Positions 35,956 through 54,287 of a stretch of DNA of 64,000 bases are shown here, one piece after another. This DNA comes from a virus (lineage: Duplodnaviria; Heunggongvirae; Uroviricota; Caudoviricetes): the IMG/VR virus record IMGVR_UViG_3300042868_003731, positions 153,967 through 217,966 of that record, one strand, 5' to 3'. The first letter of the stretch is position 1. Every line of letters starts with the position of its first letter. A program made the position numbers and the translations under genes. A model generated the notes under the pieces. That model searched no databases. It saw only the letters and a list, made by a program, of their open reading frames with translations, and was not told the origin of the DNA.

Positions 35956-36271
35956 TCATTTCTTTGTCGATTTCTTCATTTTCTATAAATTCATCTGCAA
36001 AGTCTTGCAGAGGATGATATATGTCGCTTGCCATTAAATGAAGCGAGCGAATTGATTCGAGAAGAAGAATGATGGACGGGTAGTACCTTTCGGTGTCTTG
36101 TTCGAACCTGCACCCAGACCTTACCATCTCGATAAGAACAAGGTTCCAAAGACTTTCTGCGACGTCGTTCGAAAAACTCGTTCTGTATTCCGTAAGTTTT
36201 TCGGATAACTCTTCGAGTGATTGTGGTGGTGAGTCGAGTTTCATTCGAGGGAATTTTATGATTTCAGCCAT
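35930..36271 (-). CDS. Hypothetical acidic protein
   Basis: ORF; no motif. Confidence 0.35.
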   Translation of the reverse strand: MAEIIKFPRMKLDSPPQSLEELSEKLTEYRTSFSNDVAESLWNLVLIEMVRSGCRFEQDTERYYPSIILLLESIRSLHLMASDIYHPLQDFADEFIENEEIDKEMIDIGELLE

Positions 36272-37217
36272 TACTTAAACGCCTCAACAAGTTAATCCAA
36301 GAGTTCTTAAAGGTATTTATGCTATTCCGTGGAAGGTTACATGCGTCCGAATTCGTTATCTTATTAATGAAGTTTTCGTCGATACGCTGGGCATCAAGTA
36401 TGTTCTTTACTGCAGAAAAAGAACGGTTCGCATGCTCGTTTCTATCCTCAGTATATTCATACATTAGAGTAGCGTTAGAAGACGTTTCTGGCAGAGCTGC
36501 ATAATTAGGATGGATCACCAATACACCAGAACGTATCGCTTCTATCATCGCGATACAAGACGTTTCCTGCCATATTGAAGGGAAAAGGAAGATATGAGAT
36601 TCCTTCAGAGCTTCGAGAACTTCTTCGTTACTCTTTGATCCATGATATGTAATTCGTGGATGAGCTTTGAGTTTTTCGAACAAGTTTTCATATGGCTTAT
36701 CACGTTGTTCCCAACCATAAATCTTAAAGGATGAGTATACATCCAGATGAATGTTGTCGTATTGTTTGCTGAGAGCATCAAAGATCGGATAGACGAGTTC
36801 CAATCCACGATGCGGAGTCGTGTGATAGATGAAACGAATTTGATCGGTTCTCTTTTGATGCGGGTGATACTCCAACTCAATCGCATTGTGTATTACGCTA
36901 CACTTCGAGTATGGAATCTGATAGATGAGCATGTATTGATCACGCTGCCAATACGAAACGAAAACAAAGTGATCGAACTTTTGCCAACCGCCGTCACGAA
37001 GAACAGCATTCTCTGGATCAAAAACTAAATCATGGCAGTAGAAAATGTTTTTCACATCTTTGTGCATCTCACGAGGCCTCGAGAAGTGAACTGCAAAATT
37101 CTGTAGAAGTTCCGGCGGAACATTATTAAGCAGCCTCTCTCGCATCATCTCAGTGCCTCCACGAGCATTGCGAGAGAGGTTTGTATCTACAATGTTTCCC
37201 TTGTAAATACAGCTCAT
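36264..37217 (-). CDS. GT-B fold glycosyltransferase (GT1/GT4-like)
   Basis: 'FPSIWQETSCIAMIEAIRSGVLVI' fits the E-x7-E donor-binding motif. Confidence 0.5.
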   Translation of the reverse strand: MSCIYKGNIVDTNLSRNARGGTEMMRERLLNNVPPELLQNFAVHFSRPREMHKDVKNIFYCHDLVFDPENAVLRDGGWQKFDHFVFVSYWQRDQYMLIYQIPYSKCSVIHNAIELEYHPHQKRTDQIRFIYHTTPHRGLELVYPIFDALSKQYDNIHLDVYSSFKIYGWEQRDKPYENLFEKLKAHPRITYHGSKSNEEVLEALKESHIFLFPSIWQETSCIAMIEAIRSGVLVIHPNYAALPETSSNATLMYEYTEDRNEHANRSFSAVKNILDAQRIDENFINKITNSDACNLPRNSINTFKNSWINLLRRLSNG

Positions 37218-37477
37218 TATTTGTCTACTGTGCTGAACTCTTTAAGAGAGTCCCAACGGAAAGAACGCCATCCGTTTGCTTCAACATCCCAGACCGCAAG
37301 CACAGTGTGGTTTGGAATCTTCTTTTGAATTGCTTCTTCAAGATCTACTTGAGCTGGCAGAAACTCATTTGATAGAGTGCAGTGCATCACTCGAGTCTCA
37401 CCGTTTGCTTTTGTGAAAACGACCTTGCAGATCGTTTCGTTTAGCTTTTTAATGATATCGTCTTTATCATAATTCAT
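37217..37477 (-). CDS. Hypothetical protein
   Basis: ORF; no motif. Confidence 0.35.
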   Translation of the reverse strand: MNYDKDDIIKKLNETICKVVFTKANGETRVMHCTLSNEFLPAQVDLEEAIQKKIPNHTVLAVWDVEANGWRSFRWDSLKEFSTVDK

Positions 37478-37487
37478 AACTGTTTCC

Positions 37488-37766
37488 TTAGGTCATAGCA
37501 AAGATTTTTTTGGAGCGCTCTTTTGCGGGTCCACCGTTCAGATCGTTCATTCGAACACGAATGAAACGCTTATTCGTCTGTTCTTTGTTTGGATTCTCGA
37601 TGGTCAGCCATGGGTTCGATCCATTCACCCATGCACGCTGCTTATTGAGCATGTCATCGGCGCCAGTTCTTTCGGCGCGAATGCTATTCAAAAGCTTGGA
37701 GTTAACGTTTTTGTTTTCGCCCTTAGAAACATAATTTTTACCGGACGAGCTCTTTCCCTTTGCCAT
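37488..37766 (-). CDS. Hypothetical basic protein
   Basis: ORF; K/N-rich. Confidence 0.35.
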   Translation of the reverse strand: MAKGKSSSGKNYVSKGENKNVNSKLLNSIRAERTGADDMLNKQRAWVNGSNPWLTIENPNKEQTNKRFIRVRMNDLNGGPAKERSKKIFAMT

Positions 37767-37780
37767 AATATAGTATCTCC

Positions 37781-38002
37781 TTAGTTGGTCATTTCAAGTG
37801 TTACGAGGTTAAGATCTTTAAGTATCTTGAAGTTAAGAGTTGTTAGATCGACTTCTGGGTCTAATCTCAATAGAGAGATGAGTCTATCGACGAATATAAG
37901 TTCCTTATCATGTTCTGACGCAATTGATAACGATTCGAATAATGTCTCTAAGTCGTATGGATTTTCATAGAAAACCCTAGGTTTTGTTTTCTGTTTTTGC
38001 AT
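37781..38002 (-). CDS. Hypothetical protein (start trimmed to an internal Met to limit overlap with the kinase gene)
   Basis: The track ORF 37781..38071 overlaps the dNMP kinase C-terminus by 95 nt. An internal start at MQKQ (38002) is assumed. Confidence 0.3.
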   Translation of the reverse strand: MQKQKTKPRVFYENPYDLETLFESLSIASEHDKELIFVDRLISLLRLDPEVDLTTLNFKILKDLNLVTLEMTN

Positions 38003-38612
38003 CACGTTCCTTATCGTAAATATCTTGGAGAACATCATGGAACTCCTCAAGAGAACCATTGTTATGTACACGATAGGTACGGATTGGAAATTTGTGAGAG
38101 AGCACGTGTTCGCTATCGATCTCTGTCGTCTCGCGAATAACGTATTCTTTTTCTAATCTTCCATTGAAATATCGGCGTGAGTCTGAAGAGTAGTCGCACC
38201 CATTGCGTGTAAGCTGAACCAATAGTATATTTTCAGCTCTAACTCTATTTATTAATGGAACTAATTCCTCTTCGAAGCCGCCGTCTGAGATCGCGTAGTC
38301 AACGCCATCTTCGATCTTCGATGCCACTGCGACACCAAATACGTCCTTACCGAAGGCAGGTTTCGTGATCACTTCTGATACATAGATCATAGCTTCTCGT
38401 CTCGACATGTCTTCGAGAAGTTCTTCTTTTCTCTCTTTGACGGATCTATCGTTATAGCCATCCATGAACCATTCTTTGTCAACGCCAAAGAAAGAGATGG
38501 TCTCTTCGAATAGAACATCCTTAAAACTTAAATGAGTAAATCCGCGGCGAGCGAAATACGCCGCAGATTCATCTTTACCAGATCCAGGAGGACCATTAAA
38601 AATTACGATCAA
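37977..38612 (-). CDS. 1: Deoxynucleoside monophosphate kinase (T4 gp1-like)
   Basis: Walker A 'IFNGPPGSGKDESAAYF' with C-terminal 'VHNNGSLEEFHDVLQ', parallel to T4 gp1 'IFLSGVKRSGKDTTADF' and 'ITNDGSLEELFSKIK'. Confidence 0.7.
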   Translation of the reverse strand: MIVIFNGPPGSGKDESAAYFARRGFTHLSFKDVLFEETISFFGVDKEWFMDGYNDRSVKERKEELLEDMSRREAMIYVSEVITKPAFGKDVFGVAVASKIEDGVDYAISDGGFEEELVPLINRVRAENILLVQLTRNGCDYSSDSRRYFNGRLEKEYVIRETTEIDSEHVLSHKFPIRTYRVHNNGSLEEFHDVLQDIYDKERDAKTENKT

Positions 38613-38830
38613 AACCTATGCTCCTCCGTCGATGCTTCTGCAAATGCTTCATCCCACTCCTTGGCAGTGATACCGGAAAGAATGAACTCGCGGTCGGTAT
38701 CGTTAAGATACGGCATCAGCTCCTGAATGTTGCCTAGGCCAGTTTCCCAAGCAGCCATGTCGTCAGGGTTAACCGGAATGTTGCGAGTACGCTCAACACC
38801 AGTCAGAATGCTCTTACGCTTGATCCACAT
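38609..38830 (-). CDS. Hypothetical protein
   Basis: ATGA-coupled small ORF. Confidence 0.35.
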   Translation of the reverse strand: MWIKRKSILTGVERTRNIPVNPDDMAAWETGLGNIQELMPYLNDTDREFILSGITAKEWDEAFAEASTEEHRF

Positions 38831-39380
38831 TTTCTTTTTCCTTTATGAAGCCTAGCTTTGCGATATAGTAGGAATCAACAATGTCCGAAACCGGATTCCA
38901 TTGATTCTTATTTAATATATCCAATTCTACGCGAATGTCAACCATTGTTTCTTCAAAAAAGCTTTCATACATCTTTTCTTTGTTTGCGTTTCCCTTCGTG
39001 GTAGCAAACTTTTTGATCTCGGGTGGCGCAAACACTTGAAAGGGAATCTTGTCTTTCCAAAGACGATACTTTAGTTGGCCGGTGTTCTCTGCTATCTGAA
39101 AGACTCGGCCGACAGCATTGAAGGCGTATCCTTCAATGAAGCACTTAGTTACGTTGTTTGATGTGAGAGTCTTGAGTGACCACTTTGAGAGGTTATCGTA
39201 TCGATGCGCGTCGCAAAGATACTCTTGATACATCTCTCCATAGAACTGCCCAGAGACAACGACTGATTTCTCTCGATGTACGACATAGTAGAAACGGCAG
39301 TTTTTCACGTTCCATTCATCGCCCTCGTGAACGCATATAGCGGGGCTCGTCAAACTATAATCAATACCAGCAACTATCAT
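38814..39380 (-). CDS. RuvC-like Holliday junction resolvase
   Basis: N-terminal 'MIVAGIDYSLTSPAICV' (catalytic Asp in the GID.S context) and C-terminal 'DIVDSYYIAKLG' (D..D.Y.IA). Confidence 0.55.
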   Translation of the reverse strand: MIVAGIDYSLTSPAICVHEGDEWNVKNCRFYYVVHREKSVVVSGQFYGEMYQEYLCDAHRYDNLSKWSLKTLTSNNVTKCFIEGYAFNAVGRVFQIAENTGQLKYRLWKDKIPFQVFAPPEIKKFATTKGNANKEKMYESFFEETMVDIRVELDILNKNQWNPVSDIVDSYYIAKLGFIKEKENVDQA

Positions 39381-39407
39381 AAAATATCTCCATCTTGTAG
39401 AGATATT
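39381..39407 (-). promoter_or_regulatory. Leader hairpin at the RuvC-like gene start (stem AAATATCTC / GAGATATTT) overlapping the Shine-Dalgarno
   Basis: Perfect 9-bp inverted repeat with a 9-nt loop, ending 1 nt before the ATG. The GGAGA RBS lies in the loop/3' arm. Confidence 0.4.
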
Positions 39408-39416
39408 TATCTTAGA

Positions 39417-40352
39417 CTACTTATGATATGAAGTGTACCAATCAACGAATGAAGCAACACCTTCTTCGATATTGACTGAAGGTTGATAACCATACTTTAC
39501 AAGTTTTGATACGTCAGACTGAGTCTCAAGACAATCGCCTGCTTGGTGTTCGATATACTCAATATCAGCTTTCTTTCCAGTCGCCGTTTCGATTGCTTCT
39601 ACGAAACGTTTAAGAGTGACTTGCTGAGTGTTACCTATGTTAAAGATCTCGTTCGAAGGAATACTGTCGTTTTCCATCACTATCTGAACACCTTTCACGA
39701 TATCATCAATGTACGTGAAATCGCGCTTCATGTTTCCATAGTTATACAGCTTTATCTTTTCACGATTGAGAATGTTCTTTGTGAAGTCATAGAGAGCCAT
39801 GTCGGGTCTACCCCAAGGTCCATATACTGTGAAGAAACGAAGACCGATGTCGTTCAGGCCAGACATCTTAAACTGGCATTCATTAACAAACTTAGTGTAT
39901 CCATACGGACTTATCTGATGAAGAACCGGTTCGTCTTCTCTCCATGGAAGTTGTTCGATTCCAGCGCAGACGCTAGAAGTAGATGCATAGACGACTTTTT
40001 CTATGCCGTTTTCTTTGCACGCATCAATAACGTTTTGAGTTCCGTCTATGTTTACCTTATGGTAGATACCAGGGTTCTTCATAGAATATCTTACACCCGC
40101 CATCGCTGCTAGGTGTACAACAATGTCTGGCTTCGCACTCTTAATAAAGCGAGATAGAGCTTCTTTATGAATGATATCTACTAGGTGTACTGGAGGCAAG
40201 CGAAAATGCTTAACTCTATCCACCTTAAGTGTAGCTGGATAGTAATCACAATAGTTGTCAATACCAATTATCTCGTAACCGCAATCGCGAAGACGAGCGG
40301 ATAGTGAAGCTCCAATAAATCCTGCTGCACCAGTTACAAGAACTCTTTTCAT
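39417..40352 (-). CDS. NAD-dependent nucleotide-sugar epimerase/dehydratase (SDR family)
   Basis: 'VLVTGAAGFIGASL' Rossmann motif and the 'YGYTK' catalytic YxxxK. Confidence 0.85.
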   Translation of the reverse strand: MKRVLVTGAAGFIGASLSARLRDCGYEIIGIDNYCDYYPATLKVDRVKHFRLPPVHLVDIIHKEALSRFIKSAKPDIVVHLAAMAGVRYSMKNPGIYHKVNIDGTQNVIDACKENGIEKVVYASTSSVCAGIEQLPWREDEPVLHQISPYGYTKFVNECQFKMSGLNDIGLRFFTVYGPWGRPDMALYDFTKNILNREKIKLYNYGNMKRDFTYIDDIVKGVQIVMENDSIPSNEIFNIGNTQQVTLKRFVEAIETATGKKADIEYIEHQAGDCLETQSDVSKLVKYGYQPSVNIEEGVASFVDWYTSYHK

Positions 40353-41176
40353 TTAAAAAATAAACCTTCTTCGAAGTCTTTATAAATTAGTTTTTTAGAT
40401 GCGCCTTCATAATGAATAAAGCTTGGAGACACCTCAATCATTTCCGATCCACTTCTAAAGAATGGCTTTTCGCTAAATTTTCTGCGATAGTTATACTTTC
40501 TTCCGATATGGAATGGAAGTAGAGTATATAAGTTCACAATGTAGTGAAAGAAATTTTCATCTGAAGCTGTTTTGTTCTTTAGATAAATTACGTTTTCAGA
40601 ATGCTTTTCTTCCCAATGCTCCCACCATTTGCCCTTTGAAAATTTCTCAAGTATATGAGTTTCAGATGGAGTTCCTCTGCATGGATAGTTACCAGAAAAT
40701 ATATCCATGTTATATAGTTTTCCATGTCCGTTCTTTAAATTTCTATTTGTGTTATTAAACAGTATGACACCAGAATTTATCTTTCCGAGCGAGCTGCTAT
40801 CCCTATGAATATATCTATCAGCGACATTATCAAAGTAACCGACGAGTCCGCTATGCATAAATTCTTCAAAGATGTTATCGGCATTTTGGTGTATGATCAC
40901 GTCGGTGTCTACGTATAGAACCTGATCGTAATCCTTTAGATGTTGAACTGCTCTATACTTATCAAAGGTCTCAACGCCAAATGCCCAAGGTTTATATTCC
41001 TCTTCACTTAGGAACTCAAACTTATAGTCGATACCATATCTCTCACAGTATGCTTTTGCAAAAGTTGTGCTATGTTTCCAGTATTCTCCAACCGAAACTC
41101 GATCAAAGCTTTCGCCGAAAACATTCTTACTTCTATCTTTAAAGTCGACGTGAAACTGGTACAGTAATCTCTTCAA
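40349..41176 (-). CDS. Putative GT-A glycosyltransferase (GT8-like, DxD)
   Basis: 'VLYVDTDVII' DxD-containing segment in a roughly 275-aa protein. Family assignment is tentative. Confidence 0.4.
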   Translation of the reverse strand: MKRLLYQFHVDFKDRSKNVFGESFDRVSVGEYWKHSTTFAKAYCERYGIDYKFEFLSEEEYKPWAFGVETFDKYRAVQHLKDYDQVLYVDTDVIIHQNADNIFEEFMHSGLVGYFDNVADRYIHRDSSSLGKINSGVILFNNTNRNLKNGHGKLYNMDIFSGNYPCRGTPSETHILEKFSKGKWWEHWEEKHSENVIYLKNKTASDENFFHYIVNLYTLLPFHIGRKYNYRRKFSEKPFFRSGSEMIEVSPSFIHYEGASKKLIYKDFEEGLFFK

Positions 41177-41179
41177 TAT

Positions 41180-41524
41180 CTATCTTCTCATACTCGCTGC
41201 ATCAACCGCAGCCTGTTTATTGTCTTTACGAATAGGAACCATGTTGGACTTGTGCGTGGTCGCAATGCCGAGGATCTCATTGCCTGTGTACTTAACGCTA
41301 GCTTTCTTTGCGCCGTTGGCGGCAACAACATCGCTTGTGACTCGAGGGCCAGTGTTGTAGTCCGGAATCTCGTAACGGTAGTCCTTTGAGTTTCCTTTAT
41401 AGCCAGCACGAGCAAGAAACCGAGCGTGTTCCGCTTCGGCTTCGATCATACGCTTCGTTTTGGTCTTTGGCTTTCTCTTACGAGTGTTGAGGGAAGTCAT
41501 CCCTCGAATCAAATGCATAGTCAT
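41180..41524 (-). CDS. Hypothetical basic protein
   Basis: ORF; Lys/Arg-rich N-terminus. Confidence 0.35.
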   Translation of the reverse strand: MTMHLIRGMTSLNTRKRKPKTKTKRMIEAEAEHARFLARAGYKGNSKDYRYEIPDYNTGPRVTSDVVAANGAKKASVKYTGNEILGIATTHKSNMVPIRKDNKQAAVDAASMRR

Positions 41525-41778
41525 TATTGGATCTTCTTCAGTTCAATATCCAGCTCTTGGCCGGTCCATACCATCATGTAGTACATGACCTTTTCAAGGT
41601 CAACAAGTTTTTCTTCAAGAAATTCGCACGGATCAAAGACGTTTGATATATCGATGCATTCTGCTTCAAAGTCAAAGCTGAGTGCTTCCGATAGAGTTAG
41701 ATGATAGTCCCTCATAAGAGTAACAAGATGAATCTCATAGTCAGAAGCTTCTGTCTTGGTAGCCATGTCTATCTCCAT
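41524..41778 (-). CDS. Hypothetical acidic protein
   Basis: First ORF downstream of the cassette variant at 41791. Confidence 0.35.
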   Translation of the reverse strand: MEIDMATKTEASDYEIHLVTLMRDYHLTLSEALSFDFEAECIDISNVFDPCEFLEEKLVDLEKVMYYMMVWTGQELDIELKKIQ

Positions 41779-41790
41779 ATGATATTTACT

Positions 41791-42072: not shown

Positions 42073-42103
42073 TTATGCTCCAATCCTATTGAAATACCTA
42101 ACT

Positions 42104-43212: not shown

Positions 43213-44355
43213 TTACTTCATTCCCATCCAAGTTGCGCATTCATCCCACTTGACGTTAGACGACAATTGCTTTTCGATATGATCAAGGATCATCTCGCGA
43301 CCGTCACGGCCAGCGAAACGCCCAAACACATAGTTAGGAGCGAATGAGTCGTTGTCCTTGATGGACGGCATCCACTCCAAAGCGTAACGCTTGCGGTCGA
43401 GACCGCTTGCGACCACGGTGTTCCAGTAGCGATCGTAGATTTCTACGACAGCATGAAGCCGCTCTGCAAAACGAACCTCAAAGTTACGAACACGGTTTGC
43501 CTGAATGACAGGTAGCATCGGCATCACGTCGTCCATTTCCTCGTTGAGGATAAGAGCAACGATGTTACGGTCGAACACGATACGATCCACAGTCTTGTGG
43601 ATACGCACATACCAATCATTCTTGACCTTAACCATATGGCCATCAGCAAAACGAATGATGTCACCCTCACGACCTTCTGCACCGCGCTGACGGCTAATGT
43701 AGTCAGCAAGGTTGCCTTCTACACTACCATAACGAGGAACAGTGGAGAACGGACAAGACTTATCCATTACATACGCACCGGTTGCGTTGTCACGAGTACC
43801 AAGATACACGAGGTCTGCTTCTTCGTATGCCAACACGATCTGGTTGAACGGGCTTACCCACTCAAAGATCGGAGTCACCGAGTCGTGTACACACTGACGA
43901 AGCCATTCGTTCAACGAAGGGTCCTGAGCAGCAAGCCAGGTCTCAGCCTGCATAGCCACTTCAGTCACGCCCATCTTGGTAGCAAGACGAAGGTAACCAT
44001 CGACCAAGATAGGACGGATCATCGAACCATCGAGCTTTTCCATGATCACGTGATCAAACAAAACACTGAGATCCAACCGATGTGCTTGAGTCTCTTCACG
44101 TTCGTTCACGTTGAAGAACTTGTGAAACGGGCGGCTCATCAGGTTACCATCAGCATCAAAGATAAGACCACGGCATTCACGGCGGATCGCGCCACCAAGG
44201 TCATCGGGGCCAGTCATATCAAAGGTGTCAGCCATCGCCACCACATAGTTGACGATGGTATACCCTTCACGTTCTGCCACAACGAACTCAGGACGACCTT
44301 CGATGTGAGGAAGGACGTCTTCGATGGTGCGTATGATAGGAAAGGCGTAGTGCAT
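43213..44355 (-). CDS. rnlA: RNA ligase 1 (T4 RnlA-like)
   Basis: 'ECRGLIFDADGNLMSRPFHKFFNVNE', 'EKLDGSMI' (adenylation KxDG), 'IFEWVSPFNQIVLAY' and 'DGHMVKVKNDWYV' parallel T4 Rnl1 'ECRGIMFEMDGE..RPMEKFFNLNE', 'TKEDGSLV', 'NFEFVAPTNRIVLAY', 'DGSHFKIKSDWYV'. GC-elevated. Confidence 0.85.
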   Translation of the reverse strand: MHYAFPIIRTIEDVLPHIEGRPEFVVAEREGYTIVNYVVAMADTFDMTGPDDLGGAIRRECRGLIFDADGNLMSRPFHKFFNVNEREETQAHRLDLSVLFDHVIMEKLDGSMIRPILVDGYLRLATKMGVTEVAMQAETWLAAQDPSLNEWLRQCVHDSVTPIFEWVSPFNQIVLAYEEADLVYLGTRDNATGAYVMDKSCPFSTVPRYGSVEGNLADYISRQRGAEGREGDIIRFADGHMVKVKNDWYVRIHKTVDRIVFDRNIVALILNEEMDDVMPMLPVIQANRVRNFEVRFAERLHAVVEIYDRYWNTVVASGLDRKRYALEWMPSIKDNDSFAPNYVFGRFAGRDGREMILDHIEKQLSSNVKWDECATWMGMK

Positions 44356-45149: not shown

Positions 45150-45461
45150 TTAGGAAATATTTTTCCAATTGCGAACGTATTCGACCTTCTTCTCACGAGT
45201 CCAATCTTTAAGATAGTCGTTGTCAGCGTCGAACTTCTCGAGCATCTGTTCTTCGGTGAGAATCTCCGAGTCGATGATAGTCTCGCCAACGTGCTTCTGA
45301 GAAAACTCTACTACCTCGTCACAGGTAACACAGTCTTCAGCCCATTCGATCTCACGTCCTTCGACAGGAACTTCAACGTTCAATTCCTGCAGTTCATCTA
45401 CAGGAATACAATACCGCATACGGTAAGACGAGATAGCAGTTACGATTACATATTTGGTCAT
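45150..45461 (-). CDS. Hypothetical acidic protein
   Basis: ORF. Confidence 0.35.
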   Translation of the reverse strand: MTKYVIVTAISSYRMRYCIPVDELQELNVEVPVEGREIEWAEDCVTCDEVVEFSQKHVGETIIDSEILTEEQMLEKFDADNDYLKDWTREKKVEYVRNWKNIS

Positions 45462-45823
45462 TTAATTAAATTACTCCAAGTTTTAAGTTTATTTCGCTTT
45501 ACATCTACTCTATCATCTAATTCATCATTAGTCAAGACGCCGTGTTCTACCATTAGTTTAATCATACAAAGCACATCACCTGCTTCTTCAACTAGTTGAT
45601 ACCTATATTTGTCTTTAGACATATCTTCCATGTTATCATACTTACGCATAATTTTCATGCAGACTTGAGTTAATTCGCCCGATTCTTCTGCTGTAATTGC
45701 CATTAACTGTTGGAAGGCATTAATTGGAGATTTTAGTTCTTCGTTACTTACCATGTCTTCTTTCCCGCAATCTCGCCCAGCGTGGTGCGGGCCATATCTC
45801 TTGCATACGTGTCTTCTCCCCAA
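45458..45823 (-). CDS. mazG: MazG-like nucleoside triphosphate pyrophosphohydrolase
   Basis: 'AEESGELTQVCMK' and 'LVEEAGDVLCMI' form the two EExxE/D metal-binding helices of the MazG fold. Confidence 0.55.
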   Translation of the reverse strand: MGRRHVCKRYGPHHAGRDCGKEDMVSNEELKSPINAFQQLMAITAEESGELTQVCMKIMRKYDNMEDMSKDKYRYQLVEEAGDVLCMIKLMVEHGVLTNDELDDRVDVKRNKLKTWSNLIK

Positions 45824-46017: not shown

Positions 46018-46323
46018 TATCCTTCCAAGGCGCGCACCGGCTCAAGCTGTGTAATAGCAGATTTGCAAGAATCATAATTAGGGAATTCCAGTGTTGTAAT
46101 AGCAGCTCCGTTATAAGAGCTGATTAGAATAAGAATATATGCGCCTGCTGTGTCAATCATTTGCTCACCTTTGTAACTGCCTTACGCAGCTCTCCACCTT
46201 CAAAGTTATCCATTGCCAGATAGTGTTTCAGTTTAGCATTATCTGGATCCACTCGATGCAACTCCTGTGCAAGAGTTTCGATTAGATCGTAGTCCAGTTG
46301 AGTTTTGATATGTTTACCCATTA
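45994..46323 (-). CDS. Two unannotated tandem small ORFs (~56 aa MIDTAGAYILILISSYNG... and ~54 aa MGKHIKTQLDYDLIETLAQ...) joined by ATGA overlaps
   Basis: My own translation; each start overlaps the previous stop (TAATG / AAATGA). Reported as one span. Confidence 0.3.
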
Positions 46324-46767
46324 GAAGTCCTCCTCACCTTGATAGACGTTAAACACAAAGATACCAGCATCACGCCACATGCGAACCACGCGAGGACGAT
46401 CGTCAAACACCATGTCTGGCTTCTTACCAAAGTCAGAGATGATTTGATCCAGCATTTCACGCTTTACAATATCATCACCACGGAAGTCATCTGCGGGACG
46501 CATGTAGAGCTTGTCCCACGTATGCAGGTTGTTCTTAGTCAACCATGCGACTGTGGCTTCACGACTGCGCTCGTTGCGACCGCTCGCTAGGACAATGGTG
46601 TTCCTAGCAGCACTTAGAGAGTGAAAGGCTTCCGCAACAAATCGGTTCACTTTATCATTCGGAATGCCAGCATCAAATGCAGCCCAGTTCTTAGGCTTGC
46701 TACGAACATAGTCCAAACGATGCTCGATGTTAGCGAGTGTTCCGTCCAAGTCAAATACGATTAGCAT
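46321..46767 (-). CDS. Polynucleotide 3'-phosphatase (stand-alone phosphatase domain of T4 PseT/Pnkp; HAD family)
   Basis: 'FDLDGTLA', 'SGRNERSREATVAWL' and 'VFDDRPRVVRMWRDAGIFVFNVYQGEEDF' parallel T4 Pnkp 'FDVDGTLA', 'SGRESGTKEDPTKYY', '[27 protein letters not shown]'. Confidence 0.8.
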   Translation of the reverse strand: MLIVFDLDGTLANIEHRLDYVRSKPKNWAAFDAGIPNDKVNRFVAEAFHSLSAARNTIVLASGRNERSREATVAWLTKNNLHTWDKLYMRPADDFRGDDIVKREMLDQIISDFGKKPDMVFDDRPRVVRMWRDAGIFVFNVYQGEEDF

Positions 46768-47116
46768 TTATAATCCTCAGATAGTTGTTCAGCAAGCCTT
46801 CGATGTTTGCTTTGCCGATAGGGTTTTGTGAGTGGACGTAGAAGTCAAAGTTGTCTGGAAGCGGGTAGCGCTTATCATTCATATCCCAATACATAATACG
46901 TTTAGCGACATCGTGACCGGTGGGTTCATCTTGACCAAGATCGTGATCAAATGAAATATATGATGGCATTCCTCTCGTCCTAACAGCTATAACAACTTCA
47001 TAAAAATTGCGGCAGATCACCCACTCTTCGTTACGATACTTCTCGCGAACCTGCCAAGGTGCCCAAGTGGCATCCTCGAGGTTACGTTCGTCATCAAGAA
47101 ACAGGTTCCAAGTCAT
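46751..47116 (-). CDS. Hypothetical protein
   Basis: ORF; no motif. Confidence 0.35.
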   Translation of the reverse strand: MTWNLFLDDERNLEDATWAPWQVREKYRNEEWVICRNFYEVVIAVRTRGMPSYISFDHDLGQDEPTGHDVAKRIMYWDMNDKRYPLPDNFDFYVHSQNPIGKANIEGLLNNYLRIINANRI

Positions 47117-47535: not shown

Positions 47536-47556
47536 GGAAAGTGCACTCTTTTTCAT

Positions 47557-48681: not shown

Positions 48682-48744
48682 AACGATTCTCCGAATTGGT
48701 TCATACTTGTTCTGTATAAACTAGTTTTATGAGATTGTAAACAA

Positions 48745-48772
48745 AAAAGAGCGCCGAAGCGCTCTTTTTCTT
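48745..48772 (-). terminator. Rho-independent terminator after the SPFH gene (bidirectional-looking)
   Basis: AGAGCGC-CGAA-GCGCTCT hairpin flanked by an A-tract and a T-tract. Confidence 0.55.
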
Positions 48773-48784
48773 CATATTTTTATC

Positions 48785-49741
48785 TTACTGGGCTGGCTTA
48801 GCAACAACGTCCATGAATGGAACAGTCGAGTCTGGGATCATAGTGGTAGGAAGAGCACCGTTCCACTTTTCAGCTTGAACTAGAGCAATCAAACCTGCGT
48901 TATCCTTCAGAGCTTCTGCTTTCGCCTTAATCGCGCTTGCTTCTGCTTCACCTTGAATACGAGTTGCTTCTGCGGCCGCAACTGCTTGAGCTAGTTGAGC
49001 GTCGGCTTGTGCCTGTGCCTGAGTCACGACGATCTCAGCCTGAACCTTTTCACGTTCTGCGTTCTGCCGAACCTTTTGCACTTCGACTTCTGCAAGCATA
49101 CGAGCTTCAATCGATTGTTCATAAGCATCAGAGAAGTCGATGTTCTCAATTTGAACCGACTCAACGATGATAGGACCAATTACAGCTTTCTGGATTGCCA
49201 TCTGAACTTCTGCAGCAAGACGTTCACGTTCCTGAATAGCGGTTGCTGCGTTGAACTTACCAAAGACGTTCTTGACTTCTTCAAGAACCTGACGATCAAG
49301 CAAGCGAGAGATCACGCCAGCTTCGCCACCATATTCACGATAGATCGTCTCAACTTGATCTGCAGGGAAGCGATAGTTAACAGACAGGTTTAGACCCGCA
49401 GTCTGTTGATCACGAGAGTAAGCAAGGATGTTCTCGTACAACTGAGCCTGTGATTGAACAGAAATATCAACCACCTTTTCGATCAAAGGGATTTTAAATC
49501 CAAGACCTGGTTCTGCAGTACCAACCACGGCACCGTTACGAAGAGTTACACCACGGTAACCTTCATCAACAGTATACCACGATCCGCCAATTACAGTCAG
49601 TGCAGTAAGACCGACGACAGTAGCGATAGTTCCACCAACGATAGCATTCATTTTCATTTTCCTTTTACGTTCATTATATTGATTTAGTGCTGCTTCATAC
49701 TCAGCTTTAGTGTTAAAGTCATAGCGATCAGGTTTAAACAT
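48785..49741 (-). CDS. SPFH/band-7 (prohibitin/HflKC-like) membrane protein
   Basis: N-terminal TM helix, then 'YTVDEGYRGVTLRNGAV' and the long Ala/Glu/Gln-rich coiled-coil typical of band-7 proteins. GC-elevated. Confidence 0.75.
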   Translation of the reverse strand: MFKPDRYDFNTKAEYEAALNQYNERKRKMKMNAIVGGTIATVVGLTALTVIGGSWYTVDEGYRGVTLRNGAVVGTAEPGLGFKIPLIEKVVDISVQSQAQLYENILAYSRDQQTAGLNLSVNYRFPADQVETIYREYGGEAGVISRLLDRQVLEEVKNVFGKFNAATAIQERERLAAEVQMAIQKAVIGPIIVESVQIENIDFSDAYEQSIEARMLAEVEVQKVRQNAEREKVQAEIVVTQAQAQADAQLAQAVAAAEATRIQGEAEASAIKAKAEALKDNAGLIALVQAEKWNGALPTTMIPDSTVPFMDVVAKPAQ

Positions 49742-49919
49742 CAGGTTTATCTTTCGTTGTTACAGTGTTATCACGGACGTATTCATTACCATCTTCATCT
49801 TTGGTATACGTGAAGCGTTCAGGCTGGCGTTTAAACGTGATATTTGACACCACCCAATACGCACCAACACCAATCACAGCCGCAACGACAATGAAGCCAA
49901 TCATAGTATAAAAAGCCAT
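49734..49919 (-). CDS. Small single-pass membrane protein; possible NfeD-like partner of the SPFH protein
   Basis: One hydrophobic helix (MIGFIVVAAVIGVGAYWVV), immediately upstream with an ATGA-style overlap. Confidence 0.35.
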   Translation of the reverse strand: MAFYTMIGFIVVAAVIGVGAYWVVSNITFKRQPERFTYTKDEDGNEYVRDNTVTTKDKPDV

Positions 49920-49959
49920 CTATTCCTCCAATTTCCAATTAATAACTAAGTACGCAATA

Positions 49960-50544
49960 TCATGCATTTTTCTTCTCCATAATTACATTGCAAAAGATGT
50001 CGACAATGGTGATCTTATCGAAGCCTTCATCGAGTTCAGGTTCAACATAGGAATCAGCCATAGCTTCAATGATGTGATGAGGGATAGTCTTCCCAGGACG
50101 AGAATCAAGGCGACGATCGAGTTCAGCCCACTCTTCAGCAGTCTGAGGAACACGAACGCACCAACATTCCTTGTGATAGTTCTTAGGGAACTTCGACAAG
50201 ATGCTCTTACGCTTCTTCGAAGACATATTAGTCTGATCCCAGTACACATCAATCCCTGCGCTGATAGCAATTGCAAGCACATTATTCATATGCTTAGTTG
50301 CTTCGTTGATGTGATCACCGAACACGTCGTCGTAAGACTTACCAGCTTCTTTGGCTCGAGCTTCGATATATGCATCAGTGCTATACACAAAGACGTCTCC
50401 ACCAAACTCCGGATCGTCAACAAACGACAATCGAGTCGACTTACCTGAACCAGGCAGACCTACGAGAACTTCAACCTTAGGCATCTTCGCCAACCTCTGC
50501 ATCTTCAAAAATCTTGTTAAAGGTAATCTCGTTGTATTCGCCAC
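49960..50544 (-). CDS. Polynucleotide 5'-kinase (stand-alone kinase domain of T4 PseT/Pnkp)
   Basis: 'VLVGLPGSGKST' P-loop and 'WDQTNMSSKKRKSILSKF..CVRVPQTAEEWAELDRR..GKTIPHHIIEAM' parallel T4 Pnkp 'ISDTNLNPERRLAWETF..HKVFDVPWTELVKRNSKR..TKAVPIDVLRSM'. Confidence 0.65.
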   Translation of the reverse strand: MANTTRLPLTRFLKMQRLAKMPKVEVLVGLPGSGKSTRLSFVDDPEFGGDVFVYSTDAYIEARAKEAGKSYDDVFGDHINEATKHMNNVLAIAISAGIDVYWDQTNMSSKKRKSILSKFPKNYHKECWCVRVPQTAEEWAELDRRLDSRPGKTIPHHIIEAMADSYVEPELDEGFDKITIVDIFCNVIMEKKNA

Positions 50545-50755
50545 GGCCGGTCATGCCGAGTTCATAAAGTCGGGCCATCATCTTTGCATCGTGTTCAGTC
50601 TTGATATACATCGATGTGTCGAGATCGCCGTGCAACATACCTACTTCAGTTCTAAAGAAGTCAACTACATACATAGTTTTGGTATAGGAACCGTCAAAGT
50701 TGCCGTAGCAGACGTCGACTTCAACTTCTTCGGGGGTCACGATTGCGATAGCCAT
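50477..50755 (-). CDS. Hypothetical acidic protein
   Basis: ORF with a weak TTGACA-17-TATATC promoter-like sequence upstream (50782..50810). Confidence 0.35.
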   Translation of the reverse strand: MAIAIVTPEEVEVDVCYGNFDGSYTKTMYVVDFFRTEVGMLHGDLDTSMYIKTEHDAKMMARLYELGMTGRGEYNEITFNKIFEDAEVGEDA

Positions 50756-50818
50756 AGTTGTTCTCCATTGCTTACAATATAGATATAATCAATGTAGAAG
50801 CAAATGTCAATGGCTTTC

Positions 50819-51577
50819 TTAAACTTTTTTTCGAACAGACTCATTATATTTTACGGCAGCTTCTAGCGTCTGTAGCTCGACGCCTGAGTTCTTTGCCGTC
50901 TGCAGAATCGCCGCGGTATCCTTTGGAAAACACGCTCCGCCCCAGCCTCTATCGTTCTCATTTACAAAAGTATGGCTCTCACCGATACGAGAGTCTAACG
51001 TGACACCAGAGCGAACCGACTCGTAATCCAATCCGAGCGTTTCACAGAAATCGTAGATCTCGTTGAAGAAGCTACACTTTGCCGCAAGAAACGAGTTTCG
51101 AAAATACTTGATGGCAATTGCGTGCTTTGGCTTACATACAGTTATGCTGATGTCTGGATACACCGTCGTGTAAAAATCTAACCAGTATTGAACGTTACCG
51201 CCAGCCAAGAACGCATGAGTGAGGTTCTTAAGGTCGTCGTCTGCGCTTGCAGCTCGAAGAAATTCTGGACTAAATGTGATGGAGTGTTCAGGAAAGTTTC
51301 TTTCGAGAGTTTCCCATCCCTCCATCGATATCGTGCTCTTAATGAGAATTGGAGCTTCTTTTGGAATGTCTTGAATTACATTATAGATTATGCTCATATC
51401 ACAGCTTCCATCTTCAGATGATGGAGTCGAAACACAGACGATAGCACCACTAATGTTTTCTATGTCTTTGATACGAATATTGCTGAAGGCCGGATCTACG
51501 ATAGACATTTCGTGATGAGGGCTAAACGCTTTATAGTGAGCTTTACCAACGAAGCCGTATCCTAATAGTACAATCAT
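50819..51577 (-). CDS. Short UDP-glucose/GDP-mannose dehydrogenase-family protein
   Basis: N-terminal 'VLLGYGFVGKA' Rossmann motif and 'GWGGACFPKDTAAI' catalytic-Cys motif (GG.C.PKD). At 252 aa it is shorter than canonical UDPGDH. Confidence 0.6.
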   Translation of the reverse strand: MIVLLGYGFVGKAHYKAFSPHHEMSIVDPAFSNIRIKDIENISGAIVCVSTPSSEDGSCDMSIIYNVIQDIPKEAPILIKSTISMEGWETLERNFPEHSITFSPEFLRAASADDDLKNLTHAFLAGGNVQYWLDFYTTVYPDISITVCKPKHAIAIKYFRNSFLAAKCSFFNEIYDFCETLGLDYESVRSGVTLDSRIGESHTFVNENDRGWGGACFPKDTAAILQTAKNSGVELQTLEAAVKYNESVRKKV

Positions 51578-51587
51578 GGTTTATCCT

Positions 51588-52595
51588 CTAGTTAGTTTTA
51601 CAGTTTATAAGATTGTCTCGAAAAATGTTCCAAGCGTTTCCCCAATCCCATTTCATGCTGAATTTGTATACTGATTCTCTATCGAGGTCAAGAGATTTTT
51701 TAATAGCGATAGTGATATCCTCATCCATATAACCAGTTACATCTTGATCTATTACGTCTAATGGTCCTTGCACAGGATAAGCAGCGACCGGAGTACCGCA
51801 TGCCATTGCCTCAATCATCACCAATCCAAATGTATCCCAACGACTAGGAAACACAAAAACATCAGCCTGTTGATAATAATGCGCGAGTTCAGCACCACGT
51901 TTGGCACCTACAAAGTTCACGTAAGGATATTGCTTCTTGTATGTTTCTAACATAGGACCATCGCCTACGATAGTTTTAACTGCATTGGGGTAGTTTATCT
52001 CAAGAAAAGCTTCCAGATTTTTTTCTTTGCTTACTCGACTCACGCAAACGAGGTTAATGTGCGAGCATGGTTCTTTCACTGCCGGTTTGAATATATCCCT
52101 ATCAACTCCTCGAGTCCAATGAATAACATTGTTATTAAATCCATGCGCATGAAGTTCATCGACCATTGATTTTGTCGTAGTGAGTACCTTATTGCTATTC
52201 TTATGGAACCAGCGCACAACTGCCCAAGTAATTCCTTCAGGAATTCCTAGTAACGTCCTTACACCTTCAGGAAACTTAGTATGGTAAGCAGTATTGTACT
52301 TAATCCCACGTATTGCAAGATACCTTCTAGCAGACATACCCATAGGACCTTCTGTGGCGATGTGTATATAATCCGGATCAATCTTCTTGATCTCTTTCCC
52401 AACAACCCAAGGAGGTGCCCAGGCAAGCTTAACTTCATTGTACTTTGGGCAATCAATATGGCCGTACATCCCGGGATGAATATAATCAACAGTATAACCG
52501 TCGCGAATCGCATACGTCTCAATATTTTTGTAGGTCGTAACCACACCATTAATCTGATTCGGTAAGTTGTCTGTAACTATTAAGATCTTCGGCAT
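51588..52595 (-). CDS. GT4-family (GT-B) glycosyltransferase
   Basis: 'FPSRWDTFGLVMIEAMACGTPVAA' fits the E-x7-E motif. Confidence 0.7.
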   Translation of the reverse strand: MPKILIVTDNLPNQINGVVTTYKNIETYAIRDGYTVDYIHPGMYGHIDCPKYNEVKLAWAPPWVVGKEIKKIDPDYIHIATEGPMGMSARRYLAIRGIKYNTAYHTKFPEGVRTLLGIPEGITWAVVRWFHKNSNKVLTTTKSMVDELHAHGFNNNVIHWTRGVDRDIFKPAVKEPCSHINLVCVSRVSKEKNLEAFLEINYPNAVKTIVGDGPMLETYKKQYPYVNFVGAKRGAELAHYYQQADVFVFPSRWDTFGLVMIEAMACGTPVAAYPVQGPLDVIDQDVTGYMDEDITIAIKKSLDLDRESVYKFSMKWDWGNAWNIFRDNLINCKTN

Positions 52596-53319
52596 AATGC
52601 ACTATCTCCCATCTTCCATCAAAGTGTTCTACCAGAGCGGTGGCACTCTCGACCCAGTCGCCATCGTTCATGTATATAACACCATTTATTTCTTTTATTT
52701 CAGCATGATGAATGTGACCACAAATTATTCCGTCATATCCATGTTGCTTACAATAGGCAGCTAGATGTTCTTCGTAACGATTGATAAAGTTTAACGCGTG
52801 TTTAGTATTCTGTTTTAGATATTTACTTAAACTCCAATAGTCCATACCAAACAAACTTCTTACTCGATTAAACTGAACATTGGCATATATCATAGCGTCA
52901 TACAAAGTATCTCCAATGTGCATCAACCATTTTTTATCATGCATCAATACGTCAAAGAAGTCACCATGAATAACCAGATAACGTTTGCCGTCTAAACCTA
53001 TGTAGTCTTGTCTGTTAGTTACTTTAATATTACCGAAGCTGATATCAAAGTTTAAAAACTTACGGCCTGCTTCATCGTGATTACCTAATATGTATTCTAC
53101 TCTAGTGCCACGCTTAGCTGCCGTGAGTATTCTGCGTATCACATTGGCATGACTCTGTGGAAAGTACCAACGTTTCTTTAAGCGCCAACCATCCAGCATA
53201 TCACCAACTAGGAATAGGTTTTCGCTTGTGTTGTTTTTTAAGAAAACACAGAGGGCGTCTGCTTGACACCCTCTGGTTCCTAAATGCACATCACTTATGA
53301 AGATGCTTTTATATTTCAT
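52549..53319 (-). CDS. LpxH-like calcineurin-type metallophosphoesterase (nucleotide-sugar pyrophosphatase family)
   Basis: 'IFISDVHLG', 'LFLVGDMLDGW' and 'ICGHIHHAEI' match the LpxH arrangement (FISDLHL / GDlFeaWiGDD / GHTH). Confidence 0.5.
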   Translation of the reverse strand: MKYKSIFISDVHLGTRGCQADALCVFLKNNTSENLFLVGDMLDGWRLKKRWYFPQSHANVIRRILTAAKRGTRVEYILGNHDEAGRKFLNFDISFGNIKVTNRQDYIGLDGKRYLVIHGDFFDVLMHDKKWLMHIGDTLYDAMIYANVQFNRVRSLFGMDYWSLSKYLKQNTKHALNFINRYEEHLAAYCKQHGYDGIICGHIHHAEIKEINGVIYMNDGDWVESATALVEHFDGRWEIVHYAEDLNSYRQLTESD

Positions 53320-53321
53320 TC

Positions 53322-54287
53322 TTATTTAAGAGCAGAAACTTCAGCCTGAGTAGCTGCAAGTTCTGGATCTGGAACCAATCCATACTGTGCAAGAGCGCCA
53401 TCAGGACCTGCCATCTCATCACTCACGAAGAACTCGATGTATTCCTTCAGACCAGGAATGACGCTGAGGTGAGCGTTCTTCACGTAGAAGTAAAGTGGAC
53501 GGCTGATTGGATAGTCACCGCTTGAGATGGTTTCTACGCTTGGTGCCACGCCACTTACCGTGGCAACTTCTAGTTTATCAGTGTTGTTCTGATAGAAGCT
53601 AAGACCAAACACACCTAGCGATGTTTTATTAGCATCAAGACGAGCAAGTGTTTCTGTGTAGTCGCCATCGATGTCAACTGCTGCACCGTCAGTTCTTACT
53701 TTCACACAAGCTTTCTTTTGATCGTCATCGAGTTTCTCAACACCGAGAGCTGCTTTACAACCTTCTTCCATCACCTTTACATCGAACACTTCACGAGTGC
53801 CGTGTTTGGTACCTGGAATGTATGCAAGGATTGCTACTTCTGGAAGAGTCGAGTCGACTTCACTCCAGAGTTTTGCAGTGCTCGACTCGTGTAGAGCGCT
53901 ATAGAGTTGTTCGACTGTTAGATTATCGATATTAAGTTGATCGATGTTCGATGCAAACACGATACCGTCATAACCAATACGAACCTCAGTCACTTCACCA
54001 ATTGCTTCTTCACACTTGGCTCTTTCTTCATCCTTCATCTTTGAAGAACTATTTGCGATGTCAACAGTGTTTTCACCAACACCTTCGCAGAGCTTCTTAC
54101 GGCCTGCACCCGAACCACCACCTTCAACTACTGGCGACGGAAAATCAAAATTTTCACCAAATGCCTCTGCGACAATGGTTGCATATGGTAGTACTGTAGA
54201 CGATCCTGTTACTTGAACGTTATCTCTTGCAAACGCAGTCGTGGACGCCAAAGCAATAATTGCCGCCGCTGATAGTAAAGCTTTCAT
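53322..54287 (-). CDS. pstS: Periplasmic phosphate-binding protein PstS (PBP_like_2) with signal peptide
   Basis: Signal peptide 'MKALLSAAAIIALASTTAFA', then 'VQVTGSSTVLPYATIVAEAF' and 'GGGSGAGRKKL', the hallmarks of phosphate-binding SBPs. Confidence 0.75.
   Translation of the reverse strand: MKALLSAAAIIALASTTAFARDNVQVTGSSTVLPYATIVAEAFGENFDFPSPVVEGGGSGAGRKKLCEGVGENTVDIANSSSKMKDEERAKCEEAIGEVTEVRIGYDGIVFASNIDQLNIDNLTVEQLYSALHESSTAKLWSEVDSTLPEVAILAYIPGTKHGTREVFDVKVMEEGCKAALGVEKLDDDQKKACVKVRTDGAAVDIDGDYTETLARLDANKTSLGVFGLSFYQNNTDKLEVATVSGVAPSVETISSGDYPISRPLYFYVKNAHLSVIPGLKEYIEFFVSDEMAGPDGALAQYGLVPDPELAATQAEVSALK

Follow-up and report, generated by a model that had tools for sequence, protein, structure and literature searches.

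The 64,000-nucleotide stretch analysed here (the window) belongs to a T4-like phage, and its minus strand carries a four-gene operon that is probably a phage copy of the pathway by which bacteria renovate their membrane lipids under phosphate starvation, wired to the regulator PhoB. This segment (50819-54367) encodes, tightly packed with gaps of -47 to +10 nt, the phosphate-binding protein PstS, a metallophosphoesterase, a glycosyltransferase of family GT4 and a 252-residue protein resembling UDP-glucose dehydrogenase (UGDH), here called mini-UGDH (Table 1). Two unrelated sugar units lie alongside. This reading is carried by gene families, catalytic residues, bacterial and phage synteny, motif enrichment and fold, from which the enzymatic activities, control by PhoB and the benefit to the phage are predicted. 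The first-pass annotation of the interval, made from the sequence alone, had joined all of these enzymes into one nucleotide-sugar toolkit and favoured glycosylated, hypermodified DNA bases as its purpose. Its gene list lacked pstS, which lies inside the interval and is key to interpreting the block at 50.8–54.3 kb.

An esterase with the fold of LpxH and the context of PlcP

We compared an AlphaFold2 (AF2) model of the esterase to structures in the PDB. The model (pLDDT 76.7) shows a metallophosphoesterase core into which residues 121–192 are inserted as a helical segment, and its top 12 fold matches in Foldseek are all LpxH (E of 9e-11 to 5e-9, identity of 18–20%), better by about three orders of magnitude in E-value than the matches to other esterases. 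The metal ligands D10, H12, D40, N80, H81, H118, H202 and H204 form a complete calcineurin-type set and are invariant across 38 sequences. In sequence, the protein scores 46.3 bits against the LpxH equivalog NF003743 (cut-off 134) and 39.1 bits against TIGR01854 (cut-off 190.35), and a PDB sequence search with it returned no LpxH match. The first-pass description as an LpxH-like metallophosphoesterase thus stands for the fold and fails for LpxH identity, and, as judged from the model, the protein is LpxH-like in fold only. JGI and GenBank annotate it as LpxH.

An LpxH-like metallophosphoesterase, PlcP, starts the phosphate-sparing lipid renovation of Sinorhizobium, Phaeobacter, SAR11 and Pseudomonas (PMC4796936, PMC9804370). 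Operationally, PlcP has been defined by a BLASTP E below 1e-40 to the PlcP of Phaeobacter MED193 (PMC4796936). We predict that the phage esterase is a phospholipase C of this kind, which would release diacylglycerol (DAG) from phospholipids.

The adjoining GT4 retains the essential residues of a glycolipid synthase

The gene that overlaps the esterase gene encodes a GT4 enzyme of 335 residues, against 334 for GTcp of SAR11. GTcp is a characterised glycolipid synthase with essential residues known by mutation, a His-Asp dyad and a DAG site comprising T162, R163 and W320 (PMC8231724). All 14 GTcp-essential residues are kept in the phage enzyme (G17, G83, G86, H105, T161, R162, R187, K192, D254, T255, F256, G257, E262 and W318), including the clade-specific Asp of the dyad and the Thr-Arg and Trp residues assigned to DAG binding. 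The GTcp motifs GRVAxEKN and FPSxTDTFG have the counterparts SRVSKEKN (residue 186) and FPSRWDTFG (residue 249), and the best NCBIfam matches include membrane-lipid glycosyltransferases. A Pfam match to GT4-conflict was set aside as just the generic 40-residue donor motif.

The yardstick for membership of the GTcp clade is an identity of 46–58% to GTcp and of less than 25% to other GT4 enzymes. As a proxy for a direct identity comparison with GTcp, the phage enzyme is 37–63% identical to bacterial GT4 proteins that adjoin esterase homologues; it has no close homologue in any cultured phage. We predict from these features that it is a DAG glucosyl or glucuronosyl transferase, of the Agt type. 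The essential Asp of GTcp is kept in 19 of 21 bacterial homologues. The residue before the catalytic acid is Trp in all 81 viral Agt-like proteins and mostly Thr in the bacterial ones, the window protein combining Trp with Asp, and the viral clade may have an altered donor specificity.

Synteny and spread of the esterase-GT4 pair

Searches of IMG/VR returned relatives of the GT4 in 361 stretches and of the esterase in 409, and the viral synteny counts were taken on the best 80 and the best 79 of these, respectively. The pair recurs in hundreds of T4-like contigs of IMG/VR. For bacteria, 185,579 species genomes were scanned with the esterase and the best 80 loci were examined. Of the 80 viral GT4 loci, 77 have an esterase gene ahead of the GT4 gene in the same orientation, in most cases as its immediate neighbour. 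Around these loci, T4-type genes for portal, capsid and protease, for RNaseH and for PhoH appear at positions that vary, which indicates a mobile module of real T4-like phages.

The bacterial esterase homologues are 46–62% identical, and 32 of the 80 loci, among them isolates of Sandarakinorhabdus, Methylopila and Hansschlegelia, have a GT4 homologue (37–63% identical) directly downstream on the same strand. The flanks of these bacterial pairs are ordinary chromosomal genes, with no phage genes among them. This order of esterase then GT4 matches the plcP-agt operon described as "type 2", in which plcP occurs most often (PMC4796936).

A variant module was found in a further viral locus (L183, 6001-9192; also L181, L184 and L007), comprising a PlcP-like esterase, a GT2/GT21-like transferase of 236 residues and a mini-UGDH of 250 residues; the other strand encodes a class-3 lipase. 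The processive glycolipid synthases Pgt belong to GT21 (PMC8231724).

Two further kinds of locus are recorded as side observations. The esterase-GT4 pair occurs (82% and 72% identical) on a 347-kb contig (L001, ENA ERZ27280177 k141_79729) that has PAAR and zeta-toxin-like kinase genes nearby and may represent a jumbo phage. A variant with the esterase alone, very abundant in the collection (L004-L006, 253 blocks), lies among baseplate genes (gp53, gp2 and gp48-like), and T4-like contigs of this type also encode DsrC.

PstS and a Pho-box-like promoter

PstS, predicted to be periplasmic, has a signal-like N-terminus (MKALLSAAAIIALASTTAFA), scores 156 bits against the PstS family TIGR02136 (under its cut-off of 206.6) and is 92% identical to the PstS of another IMG/VR locus (L089). 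Upstream of its gene lies a tandem repeat of two 7-mers with an 11-bp period, resembling the PhoB box, followed by a -10-like hexamer, a perfect hairpin (AATATCCCCA...TGGGGATATT) with a possible regulatory role, and an AAGGAG ribosome-binding site ahead of the pstS ATG at 54287. This repeat is the sole match to YTGTYAY-N4-YTGTYAY on either strand of the window (0.02 expected), and again the sole match in 64 kb, both strands, to the relaxed pattern TGT[ACT]A[CT]-N5-TGT[ACT]A[CT].

Similar repeats precede pstS in five other phage lineages, in which PstS is 41–92% identical and the upstream DNA is otherwise unalignable. The relaxed motif also precedes the esterase gene in 26 of 118 distinct viral regions and 22 of 78 bacterial regions, against 0.2–0.4% of random 150-nt windows. 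This is an enrichment of about 100-fold before both viral and bacterial esterase genes, and the motif sits at a fixed spacing of 41–64 nt or 38–40 nt from the esterase start codon. The enrichment is seen with the relaxed half-site TGT[ACT]A[CT] only, the strict pattern being found in none of the first 88 loci, and the E. coli Pho-box consensus with 3 mismatches allowed performed no better than chance within the window. Judging by these motifs, the operon may be switched on by PhoB, the phosphate-starvation regulator of the host.

A conserved short form of UGDH

The last gene of the operon had been noted for a 252-residue UDP-glucose dehydrogenase-like product with the catalytic motif, and we confirmed both GYGFVG at residue 6 and GGACFPKD at residue 213. 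The protein scores 133.5 bits against TIGR03026 (cut-off 189.8) and aligns to residues 81–305 of the 446-residue structure 4a7p. Relative to 4a7p, it lacks the whole C-terminal UDP-binding domain (no UDPG_MGDP_dh_C match) and about 40 residues of the N domain. We considered a pseudogene, or a gene split with the next ORF (open reading frame), and rejected both: the 120 best database clusters (48–95% identical) are nearly all 247–260 residues long and lie on phage-sized contigs, and the ORF at 50477-50755 has no Pfam match. The UGDH-like genes that adjoin agt in other phages are short too (254–275 residues), and a bacterial neighbour has 404 residues. We propose mini-UGDH as the source of UDP-glucuronate for glucuronosyl-DAG, which would fit its placement after agt.

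Genome setting and two further sugar units

The plus strand of the window (1–26.9 kb) carries neck, sheath, tube, terminase, portal, protease, scaffold and gp23 capsid genes, and the minus strand from 27 kb on carries replication and accessory genes (RNaseH, PhoH, DNA ligase, RNA ligase 1 and a Dda-like helicase). The identity of the capsid protein to those of cultured phages reaches no more than 66–68%, the nearest relatives being Sinorhizobium phages phiM12 and phiN3, Stenotrophomonas phage DLP_6, Methylophilales phage Melnitz and the cyanomyoviruses. The full genome is about 205 kb, since public-metagenome contigs of 205,027 and 206,085 bp match the last 10.5 kb of the window at 99.99% identity. 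A megablast search of the 18-kb interval against cultured phages gave no match. The late-promoter motif TATAAATA occurs nine times in the window against 3.1 expected; eight copies lie on the plus strand, preceding structural or late genes, and none lies in the minus-strand block at 27–62 kb, consistent with the earlier view of this block as an early strand.

The ORFs named by the first-pass annotation are all present on the minus strand, at the places and in the families it gave. Pfam and PHROG matches bear out the two GT4 glycosyltransferases and the deoxynucleoside monophosphate (dNMP) kinase; the glycosyltransferase of GT-A fold is the weakest call. Their grouping into one toolkit did not survive synteny comparisons, which separate three unrelated units: the operon at 50819-54287, an epimerase/GT8-like pair at 39417-41176 and a GT4 at 36264-37217.

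The epimerase of the second unit, a short-chain dehydrogenase/reductase (SDR), has its best PDB matches in 5u4q (Klebsiella, 3.3e-75), then the UDP-glucuronate 4-epimerase 6zl6 of Bacillus cereus and then MoeE5. It contains the motifs GAAGFIG, STSSV and YGYTK, lacks the RmlB-type TDE (the dehydratase Asp-Glu pair) and passes no NCBIfam equivalog. It is closest to UDP-glucuronate 4-epimerases, a substrate specificity that we infer from these matches. Its partner scores 16.8 bits against the Pfam GT8 family PF01501, under the cut-off of 24.3. The motifs DTD (residues 90–92), NSGV and FIHY..K are invariant among its homologues, a profile match to LgtC has an E of 0.003, and Foldseek matches are exclusively to retaining GT-A folds. 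Only 11 homologues were found among 5.8 billion proteins, three of which carry PF01501. On these sequence and fold matches we regard it as probably a GT8-like enzyme despite the sub-threshold Pfam score; JGI annotates it as a lipopolysaccharide (LPS) glycosyltransferase.

The same pairing occurs in a near-identical contig (L169, 95–98%). Compared to phiM12, the GT8-like gene, the epimerase gene, a RuvC-like gene and the dNMP kinase gene form an insertion between nrdC and the DUF2693/WYL_2 gene, common to the window and L169. The epimerase/GT8 pair is a rare insertion and plausibly opens a UDP-galacturonate branch. The dNMP kinase had been counted as part of the sugar signature; it sits in this inserted block, and nothing links it to sugar metabolism.

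The GT4 of the third unit has 37–47% identical counterparts in Sinorhizobium phages phiM12, M7, M19 and N3, Stenotrophomonas DLP_6, Caulobacter Cr30, and Rhizobium and Ochrobactrum phages. The gene order of phiM12 is the same as in the window (nrdC, DUF2693/WYL_2, GT, rnh, phoH). By sequence and gene order it is a backbone gene of the phiM12-like clade, and it carries none of the GTcp clade marks.

Weighing the lipid pathway against other readings

Several observations count against the operon being a lipid-renovation pathway. The motif patterns were written after the site ahead of pstS had been seen, which is why independent support was sought in other phages and in bacteria. The orthology of the esterase and GT4 to PlcP and Agt is deduced from synteny, motifs and fold. 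The GTcp-essential Asp, present in the window enzyme, is replaced by Glu in 64 of the 81 viral GT4 relatives, and the change D256E costs GTcp more than 90% of its activity (PMC8231724). A GT4 lies downstream in 38 of the best 79 viral esterase loci, the remainder having the esterase alone, and the 80 viral GT4 loci include pstS in 7 cases and UGDH in 4. Activity of mini-UGDH on UDP-glucose is doubtful, given the absent UDP-binding domain and the sub-cut-off score. In one locus (L087) the neighbours of the mini-UGDH gene encode a DNA polymerase, a phosphomannomutase and a cytidylyltransferase, and the 17 kb read there hold no esterase gene; mini-UGDH is therefore not lipid-linked everywhere.

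The conversion of phospholipid to glycolipid could also be retained and benefit the phage otherwise than through phosphorus, by blocking superinfection or predators, or by loosening the membrane and so timing lysis. Lipid renovation is reported to alter phage attachment and grazing susceptibility in bacteria (PMC9938194, PMC9457565, PMC9804370). The many phages that carry the esterase alone would damage the membrane with it and not rebuild it. A short way downstream of the lipid cassette (48785-49919, minus strand) lie a gene for a membrane-scaffold protein of the SPFH/Band-7 type (1.7e-30), whose N-terminus carries a transmembrane segment, and a transmembrane ORF of 61 residues. Against this, pstS, the Pho-box-like promoters and the phoH-bearing genomes point to phosphate economy. 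We regard a benefit of this other sort as unlikely to be the explanation, and it is compatible with the phosphate-starvation pathway rather than exclusive of it.

If the esterase were instead a true LpxH, the transferases would alter lipid A, core or capsule and the genes would remodel LPS or other surface polysaccharides. The database annotations as LpxH agree with this, as does the filing of viral lpxH under LPS in surveys of auxiliary metabolic genes (AMGs; PMC10653327), and so do the fold of the esterase, the JGI label on the GT8-like protein and the closeness of the epimerase to a Klebsiella enzyme. The esterase falls far under the LpxH equivalog cut-offs, however, at 18–20% identity to solved LpxH structures; it is coupled to an Agt-type GT4 with DAG-binding residues, to pstS and to Pho-box-like repeats, and no other lipid A gene is present. 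LPS remodelling is distinctly improbable as an account of the operon; it may well apply to the epimerase/GT8 pair. The remodelling of the host envelope, offered earlier as an alternative, holds in essence for the block at 50.8–54.3 kb, with a membrane glycerolipid under phosphate stress, and not LPS, as the predicted target.

Under the hypothesis first favoured for the interval, that of hypermodified DNA, a modified base would be decorated with a sugar or uronic acid by UGDH, the epimerase and the glycosyltransferases, comparable to the glucosylated hydroxymethylcytosine of T4 or to Bacillus phage SP-15. SP-15 is a real precedent: its genes for UDP-glucose dehydrogenase, uridylyltransferase, glycosyltransferases and phosphomannomutase are clustered and have been proposed to make its base bearing glucuronolactone (PMC5977210). 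Also in its favour are the dNMP kinase inside the interval, the place of the clade GT4 among replication genes, the mini-UGDH gene next to DNA polymerase in L087, and a weak MazG-like match of the ORF at 45458-45823 (minus strand; E of 0.003, under the cut-off), which could be a marine-phage MazG or a gp56-type dNTP pyrophosphatase.

With that sub-threshold match as the sole exception, a scan of the window ORFs found no homologue of a hydroxymethylase, dCTPase or DNA glucosyltransferase, in agreement with the first-pass remark that no hydroxymethylase was visible there. We extended the hydroxymethylase search to 10 kb past the right end, and the scan thus covered the window plus 10 kb of the approximately 205-kb genome, which leaves the DNA reading some room. 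Just right of the window in the same genome (L173:4341-9038) lie genes for dihydrofolate reductase (DHFR), ThyA and the small (ATP-cone) and large subunits of ribonucleotide reductase. The only thymidylate synthase (TS)-family gene in these 10 kb passes the TS equivalogs (339 bits against 108, and 338 against 327), has the dUMP-type Asn in PFNIASY and adjoins the DHFR gene, and is thus a genuine ThyA. SP-15, by comparison, has two TS homologues (PMC5977210). None of the three glycosyltransferases matched the alpha- or beta-glucosyltransferase of T4 in PDB sequence, profile or fold searches. The esterase and its GT4 (two of the six enzymes), together with PstS and the Pho-box-like repeat, fit the lipid pathway and no DNA-modification role, and the lipid pathway would explain all four operon genes. 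Hypermodified DNA is thus unsupported, and we hold it to be very unlikely. On restriction resistance in the phiM12 clade, the phiM9 paper is silent and the paper on Stenotrophomonas phage DLP6, which carries a 47% identical homologue of the clade GT4, gives no result, its sentence on digestion with 18 restriction enzymes being garbled (PMC5349666).

A further reading has the GT8-like and GT4 enzymes glycosylate proteins of the virion with phage-made nucleotide sugars. It has the second-best GT-A fold match (PBCV-1 A64R, which glycosylates a viral capsid protein) and the further sugar genes among the late genes (2637-5976) on its side, but is extremely improbable, as the genes in question sit in a block without late promoters, the GT-A TM-scores are low (0.3–0.5, from a model with pLDDT 69), and the esterase, PstS and Agt-type residues are left unexplained.

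Other genes in the window

The sugar genes among the late, structural genes of the plus strand (2637-5976) comprise a methyltransferase-like ORF, a GT17-like/DUF6445 protein (3655-5226) and a cytidylyltransferase fused to a cupin of the mannose-6-phosphate isomerase type (5230-5976), with TATAAATA motifs at 2928 and 6064. This set may serve virion or tail-fibre glycosylation. Methyltransf_24-type domains were found at 2637-3653 (plus strand, 3e-4) and at 26996-27631 (minus strand, 2.4e-12).

On the minus strand, two genes upstream of pstS, lies an anti-defence gene for Tad3, an inhibitor of type I Thoeris (55230-55754, Pfam E of 6.7e-39). The same strand encodes a PAAR-motif protein (32404-32709, 4.2e-8), a DUF932 protein (28501-29457, 5.8e-37) and a dispersed set resembling an RNA-repair system: T4-type RNA ligase 1 (43213-44355), a small HAD phosphatase (46321-46767), a cREC_REC receiver domain of the kind that processes cyclic phosphates (46751-47116) and an AAA_33/PNK-like kinase (49960-50544). 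We considered the last, which is also zeta-like, as a kinase for sugar nucleotides or DNA bases, and it is better placed in the RNA-repair set with Rnl1, the HAD phosphatase and cREC.

Table 1 Features of the sugar-gene interval and its surroundings, in window coordinates.
Feature	Position	Strand	Match or remark
phoH	32725-33474		
GT4, phiM12-like clade	36264-37217	-	Glycos_transf_1 1.5e-12; phrog_2170 1.4e-42
dNMP kinase	37977-38612	-	phrog_139 2.6e-33
SDR nucleotide-sugar 4-epimerase	39417-40352	-	Pfam Epimerase 6.4e-52
GT8-like retaining GT-A	40349-41176	-	4-nt overlap with epimerase gene
mini-UGDH, 252 residues	50819-51577	-	UDPG_MGDP_dh central domain 6.2e-25
Agt/GTcp-type GT4	51588-52595	-	Glycos_transf_1 4.7e-23; Glyco_transf_4 7.9e-17; 47-nt overlap with esterase gene
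PlcP-like metallophosphoesterase, LpxH fold	52549-53319	-	Metallophos 3.2e-13
pstS, phosphate-binding protein, predicted periplasmic	53322-54287	-	PBP_like_2 8.2e-54
Perfect 10-bp hairpin	54306-54330		between Pho-box/-10 region and pstS ribosome-binding site
TATAAT, -10-like hexamer	54336-54341	-	8 nt downstream of repeat; direct sequence reading
Pho-box-like tandem repeat CTGTTAT-acga-TTGTTAC	54350-54367	-	upstream of pstS

A model for phosphorus recovery from host membranes

We propose that in a phosphate-starved host PhoB would bind the tandem repeat and the operon would be transcribed by the host RNA polymerase. PstS would capture more phosphate in the periplasm. The LpxH-fold esterase, acting as PlcP, would remove the phosphorylated head groups of phospholipids, yielding DAG and phosphorus for nucleotide synthesis. 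The GT4, acting as Agt, would convert DAG to glucosyl- and glucuronosyl-DAG and keep the membrane intact until lysis, with mini-UGDH providing UDP-glucuronate for the acidic glycolipid.

The phosphorus demand of a 205-kb genome is 0.41 million P atoms, and published values for membrane-lipid phosphorus are 0.25–2.6 million atoms per cell. The membrane thus holds the equivalent of about 0.6–6 genome copies, a meaningful phosphorus reserve for a phage. In its boldest form the proposal would be a self-contained, PhoB-triggered "phosphorus-mining" in aquatic T4-like phages that breaks down host phospholipids to feed phage DNA synthesis, with mini-UGDH, its UDP-binding domain lost, as a new kind of dehydrogenase, either a minimal maker of UDP-glucuronate or an oxidiser of glucosyl-DAG; to this full version we give an outside chance.

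In many lakes and over much of the ocean, phosphorus is limiting for the growth of bacteria and for the yield of phages alike, and the known answers of phages are uptake genes such as pstS and phoA. If the model is true, a phage PlcP-Agt pathway adds a second route, in which the phosphorus of the host membrane is recycled while the cell is kept intact. What viruses contribute to the marine cycling of lipids and phosphorus may then be systematically misread where the esterase is filed as "lpxH, LPS biosynthesis", which would bear notably on the glucuronosyl-DAG signal of phosphate-poor waters. One AMG survey of the surface waters of an oligotrophic sea lists viral lpxH in just this way (PMC10653327). 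The literature that we found on plcP with phages, viruses or AMGs concerns host lipid renovation and phage susceptibility, and a phage-encoded PlcP-Agt pathway was not found in it, which is no proof of novelty.

Comparison with known systems

Comparison of the phage genes with characterised systems indicates what is shared and what is altered. The esterase has the helical lid and metal ligands of LpxH as well as its fold, and differs from it in its low identity, in failing both NCBIfam equivalogs and in having agt as its genomic partner instead of lipid A genes. Mini-UGDH shares the Rossmann GxGxxG, the PEFL motif, the K...N pair and the GGxCFPKD loop with full-length UDP-glucose 6-dehydrogenases (4a7p, 1dli), whereas the C-terminal UDP-binding domain and the N-domain segment of about 40 residues are missing; proteins of the short form make up a conserved family found on phage contigs.

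SP-15 and T4 resemble the window in that phage-encoded UGDH and glycosyltransferases lie near replication genes. SP-15 differs by a second TS-family enzyme, a hydroxymethyl-dUMP synthase, which was not found in the window plus 10 kb. T4 has gp42 and its glucosyltransferases, which lack a counterpart in the same span.

Among cultured phages, the closest esterase homologue belongs to Pelagibacter phage Mosig EXVC030M (55.6% identical, annotated as UDP-2,3-diacylglucosamine hydrolase). In Mosig (genes 119/120) the esterase gene also adjoins a pstS-type gene, with 11-bp-phased TTTAAC/CTTAAC repeats in the intergenic region, but the two genes are divergent instead of co-directional, and agt and UGDH are absent. 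The pstS/phoH module of marine T4-like phages is likewise similar: in the window a phage pstS is preceded by a Pho-type repeat, and phoH lies at another place. Zeng and Chisholm reportedly found in 2012 that cyanophage pstS is under host PhoB control. The marine module provides uptake only, whereas here two or three added enzymes would mobilise the lipid phosphorus of the cell.

The bacterial counterpart is the PlcP-Agt pathway of Sinorhizobium, Phaeobacter MED193, SAR11 HTCC7211, Agrobacterium (Agt) and P. aeruginosa (PlcP, Agt1 and Agt2). The likeness extends to an LpxH-like esterase gene directly upstream of that for a GT4 of about 335 residues with GTcp motifs, to a Pho-box-like site ahead, and to the predicted products monoglucosyl-DAG (MGlc-DAG) and glucuronosyl-DAG (GlcA-DAG). 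The viral GT4 clade departs from it in that the residue before the catalytic acid is Trp instead of Thr and that Asp is mostly replaced by Glu, and here the pathway is predicted to reside on a lytic T4-like phage, in one operon with pstS and a truncated UGDH.

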